A stretch of 64,000 bases of DNA from Deltaproteobacteria bacterium (lineage in GTDB: Bacteria > Myxococcota_A > Polyangia > HGW-17 > SLPX01). The stretch covers positions 21,159-85,158 of the forward strand of contig JAGGXR010000162.1 of NCBI GenBank assembly GCA_021162935.1. Reading direction: 5' to 3'. Of the stretch, positions 51,475-57,099 are shown in pieces (the stretch's first letter is position 1; each line of letters opens with the position of its first letter). The notes beneath the pieces were generated by a model. The model was not told where the DNA came from, did not search any database, and saw only the letters and a list, made by a program, of their open reading frames with translations. A program made the position numbers and the translations under genes.

Positions 51475-52203
51475 TCACTCCTCTGAAACGATATCCAGTT
51501 CGATCTGCCCCATGGCCTGGGAGCCGCGGGCCAGCCGCACCACGTGAGAAACGGGCTGAACCCCTGAAAATCGAGCCAAATTTTTCTCCAAGGGAACGGA
51601 CTCGACCAACTTGTCTCCTCGCCATAGGCTGGCCCGCCACCGTTCACCAGAACTCGTCCCCGACAGGACGCCCACCTGGACGTCCAGCCCATGAGACGGC
51701 AGTTGCTCCACCTGAATCCGCGCCGTGCATTCCTTGAACGTGACCTCAAACTCATTGTAGGAGTCCGCCCGTATCGAGGGTCCACCGCGCGTCGCCCCGG
51801 AGGCAGGCACCAAAACCAAGGGCTCACTGGTCCCCCAAACGAATTGCAATCGCGTGGCGGCCCACAGAAAAACCGCTCGAAAACGCCCAGTGGCTTCGAC
51901 CGCCACATCCTTGAATCCGACTTCTTCCACGCCTGCCGTGGCCGCCTCGACCACGGTTCGGCAATGGAGACATCCATTGAGCCGTTCGAGACGATCCGCG
52001 TCTAGAGACCCGATCCCACCGATGGCCTCGACGAGATCCTCATCGCTCAGGCCGTCGGCACTGTGCTCGGGTAGACGAATGGCATCCATGATGTATTGGT
52101 CGAGTTGATCCAGCATATCCTTGCTTCGCGTCATGAGTTCTAGTGGGTAATACGGACTCGGTTCCCAAACCTTCCCTTCTCGCAACCCGTCCCTCTCGAT
52201 CAC
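51475..52203 (-). CDS. Putative cytoplasmic anti-sigma factor / sigma-associated regulator (by position)
   Basis: Immediately downstream (7-nt gap) of an ECF sigma gene. No TM. Contains a CLHC motif. Start uncertain. Confidence 0.35.
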   Translation of the reverse strand: MIERDGLREGKVWEPSPYYPLELMTRSKDMLDQLDQYIMDAIRLPEHSADGLSDEDLVEAIGGIGSLDADRLERLNGCLHCRTVVEAATAGVEEVGFKDVAVEATGRFRAVFLWAATRLQFVWGTSEPLVLVPASGATRGGPSIRADSYNEFEVTFKECTARIQVEQLPSHGLDVQVGVLSGTSSGERWRASLWRGDKLVESVPLEKNLARFSGVQPVSHVVRLARGSQAMGQIELDIVSEE

Positions 52204-52209
52204 AATCGA

Positions 52210-52827
52210 TCACGGACTCCGACCGTCGAGCAAGCGACGACCAATCTGAATCAGCTTAGCCTTGACCTTGTTCTTTCTGCTGTAGACCGTGTTCACGCTG
52301 ATGCCGAGACGAGTCGCAATCTGCTTCGGTTCCATTCTCATCCGATAATAGTAATGAACGAACTCACGATCCGCCGCGGACAGGTGTTCGATCGCTCGCT
52401 GGAGCACATCGTTCCGCTCACTCTCGTAGAGATCGTCGAACGGCGTTGCGTCCTTGGCAGAAAGCACGGGCATCCGACCGTCTGGATCATCGAAAGAAAC
52501 CTGCTCTGGACCACGACGCCGAAGGGCATCATAGGCGGTATTGGCCGAAATGAGCCCCACCCAACTCGACAGCCGATGCCCCCGCTCAGGATCGTACAAC
52601 CGCAGCTTTTGAAAGTCCCTCTTGACGAAGTTCAGACAAACGTTCGCAAGCAGATCCTCCTGCTCTTCGGCGCTCAGCATCACTCCATGCTTGTGATAGA
52701 CCCGCCGAACACAGGCCAACATGAGGCGATGGTACTTTCGGTAGAATCGCTGCCACGCCCCCGGCTCGCCCGTGATTACGGAGCGGACCATCTCCAGGTC
52801 GACTCGCTGCCGTTCTTCCTTCAACAT
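52210..52827 (-). CDS. ECF (group IV) sigma-70 family sigma factor
   Basis: Regions 2 and 4 recognisable (FYRKYHRLMLACVRRV...; ADREFVHYYYRMRMEPKQIATRLGISVNTVYSRKNKVKAKL). Confidence 0.8.
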   Translation of the reverse strand: MLKEERQRVDLEMVRSVITGEPGAWQRFYRKYHRLMLACVRRVYHKHGVMLSAEEQEDLLANVCLNFVKRDFQKLRLYDPERGHRLSSWVGLISANTAYDALRRRGPEQVSFDDPDGRMPVLSAKDATPFDDLYESERNDVLQRAIEHLSAADREFVHYYYRMRMEPKQIATRLGISVNTVYSRKNKVKAKLIQIGRRLLDGRSP

Positions 52828-53184
52828 GACCCTTGCTTTATACGTTCAATGTTCCATTGAAGGCAACCCCCTACAATGCATTTCCACCAGTTCATGGCAA
52901 CATCCCGCTTTGCGACGAGCCAATGGATGGCCGTCACCCTTTCGGCGCCACTCTGTTCACAAACCTGTCCAAATGGAGACGTTTCACCAAGCGGAGTCTG
53001 CGGGAATACGCATGTGCGCCAGAAGTGGACCGCCGCAGAACATACGTAAAATCAATCGGTTCTGATATTTCTCACGGAATCCCCACACGATGGCAGGACT
53101 CTTGCGTAGGCGGGGCGACGACGGCGCGGACAAACACCGCAAAAACGGTGCTCTCGGGGATCCTTTGCCCCCCCCGAGACCAAC

Positions 53185-55279: not shown

Positions 55280-55388
55280 AGAACGCCCCCAAACACCCGA
55301 CCGAAAATACCCATGCGCACGAATATCGACCCTTCAGGGCCGACAAACAACCGAGCCGACAGGCTCTTTGACCAAATAGGAGGACATC

Positions 55389-55805
55389 ATGCAGGCACAA
55401 GAACACGACTGGACGTACTCGGAAATGGTCGGCGCGCTCCTGCGGCAGGAACGAGGCAACGATGACAATGGACAGGCTTCGTCGGTCATCGAGCAATTGG
55501 TGACTCAGCTACGAGCCGGGCGCAGCGTCGACCATCTGGAAATGGACCTGACCGGGCTCGTTTCCTGCCCTGACTGCGAGCCGGAAGCTCCCTGCGCCAA
55601 ATGCCGGGCCGATCAGGCTGAGATGGACCGAGAAATCCGCGACCACATGCGTCGCGTAGCGGCCACCGGGACGGATCTCGTCACCTACCTAACCGATGCA
55701 GACCAATTTCACCAGACCTGGCAGGATCGCTTCAACCAGCTCCATCTGGCCGCGATGGGGGGAGAGGCCTTCTGCTCGTTCTGTTCATTCTGCTCGTTCT
55801 GCTGA
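55389..55805 (+). CDS. Small protein (138 aa) with a GG motif followed by a C-terminal EAFCSFCSFCSFC tail (candidate RiPP precursor)
   Basis: AGGAGG RBS 6 nt upstream of the ATG. Mid-protein CPDCEPEAPCAKC. The C-terminus reads ...LHLAAMGG|EAFCSFCSFCSFC*, encoded by a 9-nt tandem repeat. Confidence 0.5.
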   Translation: MQAQEHDWTYSEMVGALLRQERGNDDNGQASSVIEQLVTQLRAGRSVDHLEMDLTGLVSCPDCEPEAPCAKCRADQAEMDREIRDHMRRVAATGTDLVTYLTDADQFHQTWQDRFNQLHLAAMGGEAFCSFCSFCSFC

Positions 55806-57099
55806 GGGCCCAGGGCTCTAGGCAGACCTTTGAGGCCCCGCCGGGCAGCACCAATCCCTCCTTTCTGAGCCAACGCAGTGCTCGGCGGGGCCCCACACCT
55901 TCTATGGAAATCAGCGCGGCAAGGGTGCCGGCAGCAAGGGGGGCCGCAGCACTCGTCGCCTGACCCTGCCGGGCCAGTCCCCCTCCCGCCGCACAGGACC
56001 AAGGCCCCAAGCCATCTTTGCTCACCACCGCCGCCAGATCCACGCCGAGATGGGCCGAACGACGCACGTACGCATGCCGATCGTCGATGGCCCCAACGGA
56101 CCAGACTCCGGCAAGGCCGGCGGGAGGAACCGGCCAATGGGCCTTGGGGTGCGAGCCCGCGCTGGCCACCAAAGCAAGACCCCAGGTTCCAGCGGCCCGG
56201 CTATAGGCCGCCTCCAAAATGAACAGGGCTGTTTCATACTGGTCCGACAGCCCGGCGACGAAATCCAACCCAGTCAACGCCACCTGTTGGGTCACGACCT
56301 GCAAGGGAGCCCATCCGCCGCCATCGAGTTGCCGACGACGGATCAACTCGATGGCTCGACAGGACATTCGAATCCGGTCCGGGCGGCCCTGCAGCGCAGG
56401 CCCAGGCGTCACGTGCACGGGGTACAAGTGACAGGCCGGCGCCACCCCCAAACCATGGGCGGACCTTCCTGCCACCAAACCGGCAGATCCTGTGCCGTGA
56501 TCATCCCACTGGGGCACAACCTGTGGATAGTGGGGCATGCGCCATGCCTCGATGGCAGGTGCCACACGCCCTGCCAAGGCCGGATGATCCGGCTGCACGG
56601 GATGGTCGATGACCGCCACCCCGACTCCTTCTCCGAGACGATCGTAGTCGGCCATCGGCCAGCGACCATAGATCGACTCCAACCACCAGGGGTCGCCGGT
56701 GTCCTCGCCCCAGAGCCTGGGCTCTCGCGGTGGCGGACCCTCCATACGCCCGGACGAAAGGTCCACGATCACCTGAACATCCCCACCGATCTCACGAACC
56801 AAATCCAGGGCTCGACGCGACTGATCGGCCAAGGATTCTTCCCCGAACAGAGACCGCAGGGCACCTCGGGATAGGTCGAGGTGGACCTGTCCCAGCCCAG
56901 GAAGCAACGCCGCCACCTGTTCCTTCGTCGCCGAAATCCTGGCATCCAGGTCGACCGGACGTATGGGAAGCCCGACTTCGTCCAGGCCATGAACCAGCCG
57001 CTCAACCAACAAAGGGAACGCCGCCTGATCCGGATACCAGATGAGCAAAGGCAGGCGATCTTCGAAAAACTCGGCAAGTTGTCCGTACCCCTCGTGCAT
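55732..57099 (-). CDS. Subtilisin-like (S8 family) serine peptidase
   Basis: Asp, His and Ser motifs (GVAVIDHP, DDHGTGSAG, ATSAAAPLAAG). Convergent with the Cys-repeat peptide gene and overlapping it by about 70 nt at the 3' ends. Confidence 0.7.
   Translation of the reverse strand: MHEGYGQLAEFFEDRLPLLIWYPDQAAFPLLVERLVHGLDEVGLPIRPVDLDARISATKEQVAALLPGLGQVHLDLSRGALRSLFGEESLADQSRRALDLVREIGGDVQVIVDLSSGRMEGPPPREPRLWGEDTGDPWWLESIYGRWPMADYDRLGEGVGVAVIDHPVQPDHPALAGRVAPAIEAWRMPHYPQVVPQWDDHGTGSAGLVAGRSAHGLGVAPACHLYPVHVTPGPALQGRPDRIRMSCRAIELIRRRQLDGGGWAPLQVVTQQVALTGLDFVAGLSDQYETALFILEAAYSRAAGTWGLALVASAGSHPKAHWPVPPAGLAGVWSVGAIDDRHAYVRRSAHLGVDLAAVVSKDGLGPWSCAAGGGLARQGQATSAAAPLAAGTLAALISIEGVGPRRALRWLRKEGLVLPGGASKVCLEPWALSRTSRMNRTSRRPLPPSRPDGAG
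55769..55805 (+). repeat. Tandem 9-nt repeat (TTCTGCTCG-like, about 4 copies) encoding (FCS)n
   Basis: ttctgctcg ttctgttca ttctgctcg ttctgc directly upstream of the TGA stop. Confidence 0.8.

Follow-up and report, generated by a model that had tools for sequence, protein, structure and literature searches.

In the ComQXPA system of Bacillus, ComQ prenylates a Trp of the precursor ComX, and ComP/ComA sense the product. Peptide prenyltransferases that resemble the trans-type synthases of isoprenyl diphosphates (trans-IDS), with a terminal acceptor residue and an adjacent histidine kinase, provide a wider precedent (PMC10853753, PMC13290415). [quoted passage not shown] ComQ, PalQ and ChrPC-P share a pattern in which the first Asp-rich motif is retained and the second is remodelled (2026 review, PMC13290415). 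Here we analyzed a gene cassette at positions 51,475 to 57,099 of a 64,000-nucleotide stretch of DNA (the window; positions below are those of the window) from Deltaproteobacteria bacterium (GenBank assembly GCA_021162935.1, contig JAGGXR010000162.1, positions 21,159 to 85,158 of the forward strand). The cassette is a genuine, very rare operon of uncultured myxobacteria-like bacteria. With middling confidence, we propose that this sigma-54-driven operon, which encodes a radical S-adenosylmethionine (radical SAM) enzyme with a SPASM domain, a synthase-like enzyme (here Q-like) and a small protein X, matures a ribosomal peptide at its C-terminus in the manner of a ComQXPA- or PalPXQ-like cassette, the product probably being prenylated. 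An earlier note on this DNA had described a candidate cluster like those for peptides made on the ribosome and modified after translation (RiPPs). Its observation of the locus was confirmed; the Cys-repeat core and the control by an extracytoplasmic function (ECF) sigma factor that it envisaged were not.

The open reading frames (ORFs) reported for the cassette are all present at the coordinates given for them. By comparison of genomes, the conserved core consists of the radical SAM-SPASM enzyme, the Q-like enzyme, the precursor X and a two-component pair, in which a sigma-54 response regulator is joined by a histidine kinase with a PDZ domain. This gene order was found again in several genomes, two of them with different flanks, and the arrangement thus exceeds chance; conservation of the module in differing genomic flanks also favors the reading proposed above. 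The Q-like family is tiny, with 34 proteins within 5.8 billion clusters, and a metagenome scan yielded only one locus, L010, that was already in hand (loci are cited by L numbers and single proteins by P numbers). Standard RiPP-mining rules would miss a family of such extreme rarity. The idea of a RiPP-like cassette is supported in that X is a conserved partner of the radical SAM-SPASM and isoprenoid-synthase-like proteins, and the locus matches no named RiPP class, as had been suspected. Nothing that the earlier note had named as counter-evidence was found: the radical SAM enzyme is not like the anaerobic sulfatase-maturating enzymes (anSME), and homologous loci retain the peptide.

X (55389..55805, forward strand) is a 138-aa precursor-like protein whose body is helical and whose C-terminal tail is disordered and ends in Cys; in the window its C-terminus reads AAMGGEAFCSFCSFCSFC. 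The ORF had been singled out for its strong ribosome-binding site, and a GGAGG does lie 5 nt upstream of the ATG. No Pfam or NCBIfam model matches X, and a profile search against 1.84 billion representatives returned only 4 matches. The protein is identical to one from a 'Deltaproteobacteria bacterium' metagenome-assembled genome (MAG) and has eight further, more distant homologues; X homologues have identities of 52–73%. A relative at L011/L012, from two other metagenomes, has ~90% protein identity; it matches the window protein in length (138 aa) and in its tail, and its gene has synonymous changes within the repeat described below. The ratio of nonsynonymous to synonymous changes (pN/pS) between it and the window gene is 0.13. 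Based on this ratio and the recurrence of the tail in other metagenomes, X is a real gene under purifying selection.

The universal feature of X is its last residue. Cys is terminal in 12 of 13 distinct X sequences, at a fixed spacing of nine residues after a conserved helix (HL+9), in tails that otherwise differ, and it is the only invariant residue of the tail. Eight aligned homologues of 126–131 aa end in ...LH[LM]A[AV]MGGE-x-x-C, with a single terminal Cys. The helix, F-x3-W-x-D-R-F-x2-L-H-L in the window (residues 107–120; 55707..55748, forward strand), recurs in the alignment and, with the same motif and spacing, in the L018 peptide and in P0047, giving a family-wide consensus of F-x3-W-x-[DH]-R-[FL]-x2-[LM]-H-[LM] followed by nine residues of which the last is Cys. 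It is a putative enzyme-recognition element. The L018 homologue is only 57 aa long and ends in ...FQARWKDRLHKMHLSDIHTITPC; it retains helix, tail and terminal Cys but has neither the N-terminal body nor the Cys motif of X. P0047, with 111 aa, ends in ...FHARWKHRLEKLHLSNVYTMAPC. The zinc-ribbon-like four-Cys motif CPDC...C..C (55566..55604, forward strand), whose residues C60, C63, C69 and C72 are invariant in the alignment, is missing from the L018 peptide and present in P0047. The N-terminal body and the CxxC...CxxC motif are dispensable, as in the L018 homologue, and the Gly-Gly of the tail is not universal. Trp is not a conserved acceptor, being found in the tail of only P0006 and P0008, at position -1.

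An AlphaFold2 model of X (predicted local distance difference test, pLDDT, 66) has helices at residues 10–22, 33–42, 70–92 and 97–124 and a tail (122–138) with pLDDT <50, so that the tail is predicted to be disordered, as would be expected of a substrate. A fold search with this model gave no match, and X has no transmembrane or signal segment. In the window, the tail contains a 9-bp tandem repeat, TTCTGCTCG x 3.8 (Tandem Repeats Finder; 55770..55803, forward strand), that encodes FCSFCSFCSFC. The repeat is confined to the window and L011/L012; of the other 11 distinct homologues, 10 end in one Cys (...GGEA[FWLV]C, ...ITPC or ...MAPC) and 1 in Ser. By this distribution, the repeat is best read as a lineage-specific extension of an ancestral ...FC terminus. 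An assembly artefact was considered and rejected, since the repeat is seen in independent metagenomes with synonymous changes.

The radical SAM enzyme (53185..54327, forward strand) matches the Pfam model Radical_SAM (PF04055) at E 7.6e-23 and has a SPASM-type auxiliary-cluster domain, as had been read from the sequence. The ATG at 53218 is more likely to be its true start than 53185, and with that start the enzyme has no N-terminal RiPP recognition element (RRE) domain or extension: the sequence begins directly at the CX3CX2C cluster motif, CNLSCAWC, near the N-terminus. Automatic start calls for this gene are inconsistent (53185 versus 53218 in the window and ~803 versus 893 in L018), and the L018 gene call misses the CX3CX2C motif, which lies in frame upstream with a TTG start. 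The C-terminal part has eight Cys in the pattern C-x2-C-x14-C ... C-x2-C-x5-C-x2-C ... C. These residues (C243, C246, C261, C296, C299, C305, C308 and C326) are invariant in 8 sequences with identity down to 33%, and they provide the seven Cys expected of a SPASM domain that binds auxiliary Fe-S clusters. The Pfam SPASM model does not match the window enzyme at E<=0.01; it does match orthologues. Among NCBIfam models the best is WgkB, with 79.9 bits (cut-off 650), and PapB scores 56.6 (cut-off 340); the named radical SAM-SPASM equivalogs among the 25 models listed, of 67 matched, all score far under their curated cut-offs. Full-length alignments were obtained with models of the PapB and QhpD types, and the closest relatives in the PDB are SkfB and PqqE. 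Assignment to anSME was rejected based on a match weaker than those to SkfB and PqqE and on the lack of a sulfatase context.

The Q-like gene (54314..55279, forward strand; 321 aa) overlaps the stop codon of the radical SAM gene by 14 nt and is translationally coupled to it. An AlphaFold2 model of the protein, made from ten family members, has pLDDT 90.8. In a Foldseek search of the PDB with this model, the top matches were only trans-polyprenyl diphosphate synthases, including farnesyl (FPPS) and geranylgeranyl (GGPPS) diphosphate synthases (probability 1.0, TM up to 0.69, 12–16% identity). The strongest were long-chain (C35–C50) synthases, and Ord1 and MoeN5, prenyltransferases that do not use isopentenyl diphosphate, match the fold nearly as well. 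Based on the model, the Q-like protein is predicted to have a true polyprenyl synthase (all-alpha isoprenoid synthase) fold, and the label 'polyprenyl-synthase-like' given to it earlier is right at the fold level. At the sequence level, PF00348 does not match the window protein at thresholds up to E<=10, SQS_PSY weakly matches a single one of 14 relatives, and a profile search of the family against PDB sequences gave nothing meaningful. An hhalign comparison of the family with E. coli IspA gave only an uninformative 16-residue match in which the first motif was paired with the second Asp-rich motif (SARM) of IspA.

Across 14 Q-like sequences of ~25% identity, the invariant residues are R92-x-Q94-D95-D96-V97-x-D99 at the end of helix 74–98 (DDVLD, residues 95–99, in the window protein), N111, K171, and N210-D211...D218 at the end of helix 189–213 (ND...D, residues 210–218). 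Both a first Asp-rich motif (FARM) and a SARM had been proposed. The first stands, as an invariant RxQDDVxD; the second is a degenerate NDxxG...D, and the assignment of the two motifs to FARM and SARM positions is made by helix position only. The enzyme fits the pattern of a trans-IDS-like peptide prenyltransferase, with a trans-IDS fold, the first Asp-rich motif kept and the second remodelled. Its gene always adjoins that of a leader-bearing precursor peptide, in all three clades into which the Q-like family divides.

In clade i, the window type, a translationally coupled radical SAM-SPASM gene always lies upstream and X always lies downstream, and four sublineages were seen. The first (the window and L011/L012) has the radical SAM, Q-like and X genes and a subtilase (S8) gene, no B12-binding radical SAM gene, and the (SFC)3 tail. 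The second (L001, L002, L005, L006 and L010) has an additional gene for a B12-binding radical SAM enzyme of 424–446 aa (e.g. L001:8631-9905) between the Q-like gene and X, which are separated by only 109 nt in the window. The third (L009 and L003) is like the second, except that CbiMQO is upstream in place of the ECF sigma pair. The fourth (L018 and L022/L023) lacks S8 and the B12-binding enzyme and has a peptide without Gly-Gly; L018 has the radical SAM, Q-like and X genes, and the short L022/L023 contigs show Q-like and X only. In the window lineage, among the loci sampled, the missing B12-binding enzyme goes together with the (SFC)3 extension.

Clade iii is from a Bacillota MAG and related runs (L008:3427-9111 and L014:7857-13655). 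Its Q-like protein has ~33% identity and its radical SAM-SPASM enzyme 33–34% identity to those of the window. The precursor is of the PF14407 Frankia_peptide type and ends in ...QKAAGC or ...QKRAGC, and an hhalign comparison of X with PF14407 Frankia_peptide-type precursors found no homology. Thus a non-homologous precursor is also Cys-ended beside a Q-like and radical SAM-SPASM pair, which favors maturation at the C-terminus, and the L008/L014 cluster appears to be a second, independent terminal-Cys system. Further products of this cluster are a cyclase-like protein of 444 aa, a protein of 719 aa that weakly matches cyclic nucleotide (cNMP)-binding proteins, an ABC transporter and PadR. The Polyangium-type loci (L015-L017, L019 and L021:3090-10470), which make up clade ii, have no radical SAM gene, and their precursors, of the PF14407/Nif11 type, end in ...RKAA[A/S/T/F] with no Cys. 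No convincing candidate emerged when these loci were searched for a small ORF ending in Cys. Besides the Q-like protein and the precursor, they encode an adenylate/guanylate cyclase, a ~620-aa protein, an ATP-grasp enzyme, an acetyltransferase, an M50 peptidase and a cNMP-binding protein. A gene for an Rce1-like protease of the CAAX family occurs only in L021, where the 'K-A-A-X' end of the peptide beside a CAAX-type protease is striking.

Across the three clades, the radical SAM-SPASM enzyme co-varies with the terminal Cys of the peptide. The 444-aa protein of clade iii and the ~620-aa protein of clade ii are homologous (32% identity), and the profile of their family has a weak match (E 1e-3) to squalene-hopene cyclases. 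The squalene-hopene-cyclase-like partner of the Q-like enzyme in these two clades, on sequence grounds, points to isoprenoid chemistry.

On the opposite strand downstream of X is a cytoplasmic subtilase (S8) and putative leader peptidase (55732..57099, reverse strand; Pfam S8, E 1.7e-14). Its triad, D165, H201 and S383, is invariant, and it has no signal and no transmembrane segment. A Gly-Gly in X (MGGE; 55758..55763, forward strand), the putative S8 cleavage junction, is invariant in all lineages that carry S8. Both S8 and Gly-Gly are present in sublineages 1–3 and both are absent in sublineage 4 (L018, L022). This co-variation fits a leader peptidase and its cleavage site, and it lends support to the earlier suggestion that S8 removes the leader at a Gly-Gly boundary with the core. 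A C39 or ABC gene was found in none of the window-clade loci, so that Gly-Gly is not paired there with a C39-ABC transporter. The convergent 3' ends of X and S8 overlap by 74 nt in the window (55732–55805), by 53 in L011, by 26 in L001 and not at all in L005 and L003, and the 27-bp repeat expansion in X also extends the non-conserved tail of S8.

About 94–127 nt upstream of the radical SAM start is a predicted sigma-54 type promoter, TGGCAGGACTCTTGCG (53091..53106, forward strand; -24 TGGCA, -12 TTGC), the sole match to TGGCA-N6-TTGC in the 64-kb window. The pattern TGGC-N7-TTGC upstream of the radical SAM gene is conserved in 7 loci and is invariant in L001, L005, L010, L011, L009 and L018. 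When the upstream regions of six loci are aligned, both blocks, TGGC and TTGC, remain invariant, whereas mean column identity around them has fallen to 53%. Within 51400–57300 no sigma-70-like site was detected, and inverted repeats resembling enhancers, looked for upstream of the promoter, gave nothing consistent. Downstream of the cassette, an NtrC-type sigma-54-dependent response regulator (57200..58819, reverse strand; Response_reg and Sigma54_activat, 8e-64) is convergent with it and adjoins it in every lineage with enough contig, L018 and L022 included. A sensor histidine kinase (58725..61340, reverse strand) follows the regulator wherever the contig shows. Based on Pfam matches (PDZ_6, HisKA and HATPase) and hydropathy, it has a first transmembrane segment, an extracytoplasmic PDZ loop (residues ~65–186), at least 7 more transmembrane segments, and then HisKA and HATPase; the L018 kinase has the same PDZ architecture. 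The sigma-54 activator and the PDZ kinase are conserved down to 42% Q-like identity. Given the -24/-12 promoter and the adjacent activator, the operon is probably regulated by sigma-54 and an enhancer-binding protein. A second histidine-kinase-like ORF of 423 aa (61314–62585, forward strand) is divergent from the PDZ kinase and is found in L001 and L005 as a HATPase_c_2 protein.

The divergent neighbor of the cassette on its other side is an ECF sigma factor (52210..52827, reverse strand; TIGR02937, 3.6e-22), followed downstream by a gene for a 242-aa protein (51475..52203, reverse strand). The two had been taken for an ECF sigma/anti-sigma pair that controls the cassette. The sigma factor was correctly identified, whereas the anti-sigma identity was assigned by position alone: the 242-aa protein has no Pfam or NCBIfam match, no transmembrane segment and no canonical HxxxCxxC. 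The pair occurs only in syntenic relatives and is absent beside the cassette in L009 (where CbiMQO is upstream) and L018, though the core persists in both and the sigma-54 promoter, NtrC-type regulator and PDZ kinase are conserved instead. We therefore regard the pair as syntenic baggage, not part of the conserved core, and the proposed ECF control is not supported. Further upstream, a fusion ORF of a beta-propeller (Vgb_lyase/SGL-like) and a transglutaminase core (47212–48888, forward strand) also lies upstream in syntenic relatives, with an RNase II gene, and is probably unrelated housekeeping synteny. An Rfam search over 50500–58000 detected no riboswitch and no other RNA.

The analysis shows which genes are present, their motifs and folds, what is conserved and what co-varies, and the footprint of the promoter; from these we infer each chemical step and the order of the steps. 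X would be a cytoplasmic precursor with a helical body, a recognition helix and a disordered 9-residue tail with a free C-terminal Cys, to which the window lineage adds three SFC units. The terminal Cys may be the site or the starting point of radical chemistry by the radical SAM-SPASM enzyme, which might, for instance, form a thioether link or transform the residue oxidatively. The Q-like enzyme would bind an allylic prenyl diphosphate at its intact DDxxD, take up the peptide tail in its remodelled second site and prenylate it, with the thiol of the terminal Cys as the most plausible nucleophile in clade i. S8 would cut the leader off at Gly-Gly where both are present, and methylation would be the task of the B12-binding enzyme in the loci that have it. 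Transcription of the operon from the -24/-12 promoter would be driven by the PDZ kinase and the NtrC-type regulator. Like export of the product, sensing by the kinase belongs to the proposal: kinase and regulator may sense the matured C-terminal peptide, which would close an autoinduction loop like those of ComQXPA and PalPXQ. A more specific version, in which the trans-IDS-fold enzyme S-prenylates a terminal Cys transformed by the radical SAM enzyme, to give a lipopeptide autoinducer that is read by the periplasmic PDZ domain and signals to sigma-54, in a lipidation independent of CaaX, seems to us rather doubtful. Were it true, it would amount to a new RiPP class and a new kind of peptide sensor, with the first substrate other than Trp for a trans-IDS-like peptide prenyltransferase.

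Several observations weigh against maturation of X along these lines. The X homologue P0046 ends in ...MGGEAAS, with Ser instead of Cys, which could be natural Cys/Ser alternation or an error. The characterised trans-IDS-like peptide prenyltransferases all target Trp, not Cys (PMC13290415), and in clade ii, which has no radical SAM enzyme, the Q-like enzyme pairs with Cys-free peptides, so that Cys is not necessarily the acceptor. No Pfam or NCBIfam model matches the Q-like protein, those for prenyl synthases included, and its second motif, N210-D211-x2-G...D218, is neither DDxxD nor Asp-rich. In S8, the oxyanion Asn of subtilases (AAGN) is replaced by AGSHP at residues ~314–318. X, the Q-like protein and S8 are all without a signal peptide, and there is no exporter gene within the cluster. 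A looser promoter pattern occurs in the window at chance frequency (4 observed versus 3.06 expected), and the case for the promoter therefore rests on its position and conservation. It should also be noted that the co-variation arguments cover only three clades and a handful of sublineages.

The earlier note had likened the CxxCxxCxxC tail to the Cys-rich cores of sacti- and ranthipeptides. In such a RiPP, the radical SAM-SPASM enzyme would make thioether crosslinks from the tail Cys, S8 would be the leader peptidase and the Q-like protein a non-catalytic scaffold or chaperone. We find this unlikely, even though the radical SAM enzyme aligns over its full length to PapB (ranthipeptide) and QhpD and has the sactisynthase SkfB as its best PDB match, Cys is the only invariant residue of the tail, and S8 and Gly-Gly co-vary. 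The lack of an RRE in the enzyme cuts both ways, as it makes a peptide-presenting partner plausible and is unlike a sactipeptide or ranthipeptide maturase. Several tail Cys are found only in the window/L011 lineage, to which (SFC)3 is confined; most family members have one, and a core with multiple thioethers is thus not the general mechanism. Elsewhere there is no acceptor at a fixed offset (position -3 is E in one group, I/M in another and A in Bacillota). The invariance of DDxxD, Lys and ND...D in the Q-like protein across ~25% identity would be unexpected for a pure scaffold, and its relatives adjoin squalene-hopene-cyclase-like proteins. The invariant Cys could also be read as part of a small molecule like mycofactocin or pyrroloquinoline quinone (PQQ), in which case the radical SAM-SPASM enzyme would transform the terminal residues of X (E-x-F-C or Cys), S8 would excise them, and the Q-like enzyme would add a polyprenyl group to yield a membrane cofactor or lipid. 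MftC-type radical SAM-SPASM enzymes do act on a C-terminal residue, universal constraint in X is seen only at the extreme C-terminus, cleavage at Gly-Gly would leave a 4-residue core, and the synthases that match the Q-like protein best in structure make long chains (C35–C50). The X homologue with Ser for Cys fits as well, as anSME-type radical SAM enzymes accept both residues. This route is nevertheless decidedly unlikely in our view: there are no dedicated RRE/MftB-like, oxidoreductase or glycosyltransferase genes, sublineages without S8 and Gly-Gly have no obvious excision step, and genes for signalling or antimicrobial peptides are more typically the ones so tightly linked with a two-component system.

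X may instead not be a substrate at all, with the radical SAM and Q-like enzymes handling an isoprenoid metabolite, X serving as a zinc-ribbon regulator or adaptor of the sigma-54 circuit, and the terminal Cys arising by chance. In the window lineage X is long (138 aa), is conserved throughout and has the CxxC...CxxC motif, and X and the sigma-54 regulator are always adjacent. However, the 57-aa L018 homologue drops the N-terminal body with the Cys motif and keeps the helix, tail and terminal Cys, unrelated peptides of the RiPP-leader type (PF14407) accompany the other Q-like clades, and the predicted disorder of the tail is that of a substrate. We consider a regulatory role of this kind very improbable.

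Under the proposed maturation of X at its C-terminus, the product of the operon would be a modified signalling peptide, possibly with a lipid attached, and a candidate for a new class. Each part of the operon is of a known kind, the two-component system and the leader peptidase as much as the radical SAM-SPASM maturase and the trans-IDS-like enzyme. What is new is how they are combined, together with a substrate that ends in Cys, a kinase with a PDZ domain and the wiring to sigma-54; in the literature searched we found no published description of this gene combination. If the proposal is true, the substrates of trans-IDS-like peptide prenyltransferases would extend past Trp, radical SAM and isoprenoid chemistry would be newly paired on one terminal residue, and a lipidation tool specific for C-terminal Cys would be at hand. 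It would also mean a quorum-sensing-like circuit with a PDZ-domain kinase in uncultured Myxococcota. The hypothesis is directly testable with three natural combinations: Cys with the radical SAM enzyme; Cys with the radical SAM enzyme and the cyclase-like protein; and the cyclase-like protein with neither Cys nor the radical SAM enzyme.

Among known systems, CaaX prenylation in eukaryotes (FTase/GGTase, Rce1 and ICMT) would be alike in placing a lipid on a Cys in the C-terminal end of a protein, and L021 has an Rce1-like protease. However, its transferases are alpha/alpha-barrel zinc enzymes rather than of the trans-IDS fold, Cys is the last residue here and not the fourth from the end, and prenylation of X is a proposal. 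The ChrPC/NctPC prenyltransferase-cyclase fusions, as summarized from Hubrich et al. 2024 in PMC13290415, combine a trans-IDS-like peptide prenyltransferase with a partner of the terpene cyclase type, which resembles the Bacillota and Polyangium clades; going by that summary, they differ from the window clade, which has radical SAM enzymes in place of a cyclase-like gene. PapB, SkfB and CteB include the best sequence-level neighbors of the radical SAM enzyme and use Cys sulfur as the reactive atom, but they have Cys-rich cores, defined acceptor motifs and usually an RRE, whereas here there is mostly one Cys, no conserved acceptor and no RRE. In the mycofactocin system (MftA/MftB/MftC), a radical SAM-SPASM enzyme likewise acts on a precursor with a conserved extreme C-terminus, and a protease could release the product later. 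Unlike that system, the cassette has no RRE protein of the MftB type, ends its precursor in Cys rather than Val-Tyr, scores far under the NCBIfam cut-offs and has a partner with an isoprenoid synthase fold.

The ComQXPA system comes nearer, with a modifier of trans-IDS ancestry that keeps the first Asp-rich motif and has repurposed the second, a small precursor, a histidine kinase with multiple transmembrane segments and a response regulator. It differs in that the window Q-like protein has no PF00348 or ComQ-type match, the residue is another one, a radical SAM enzyme is added, the regulator is of the NtrC/sigma-54 type, and the host is a Myxococcota-like MAG. PalQ/PalX/PalP and the cassette have in common a divergent isoprenoid synthase enzyme beside a leader-bearing precursor whose last residue is conserved, a terminal residue that is proposed to enter the active site, and a histidine kinase in the cluster. 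In the cassette, Cys or some other residue of the tail would take the place of Trp as acceptor, the leader of X is not an NHLP, and the cassette has an obligate, translationally coupled radical SAM-SPASM enzyme, a sigma-54 activator and a PDZ kinase. PalP/PalX/PalQ is by analogy the closest precedent for the operon, with ComQXPA next.

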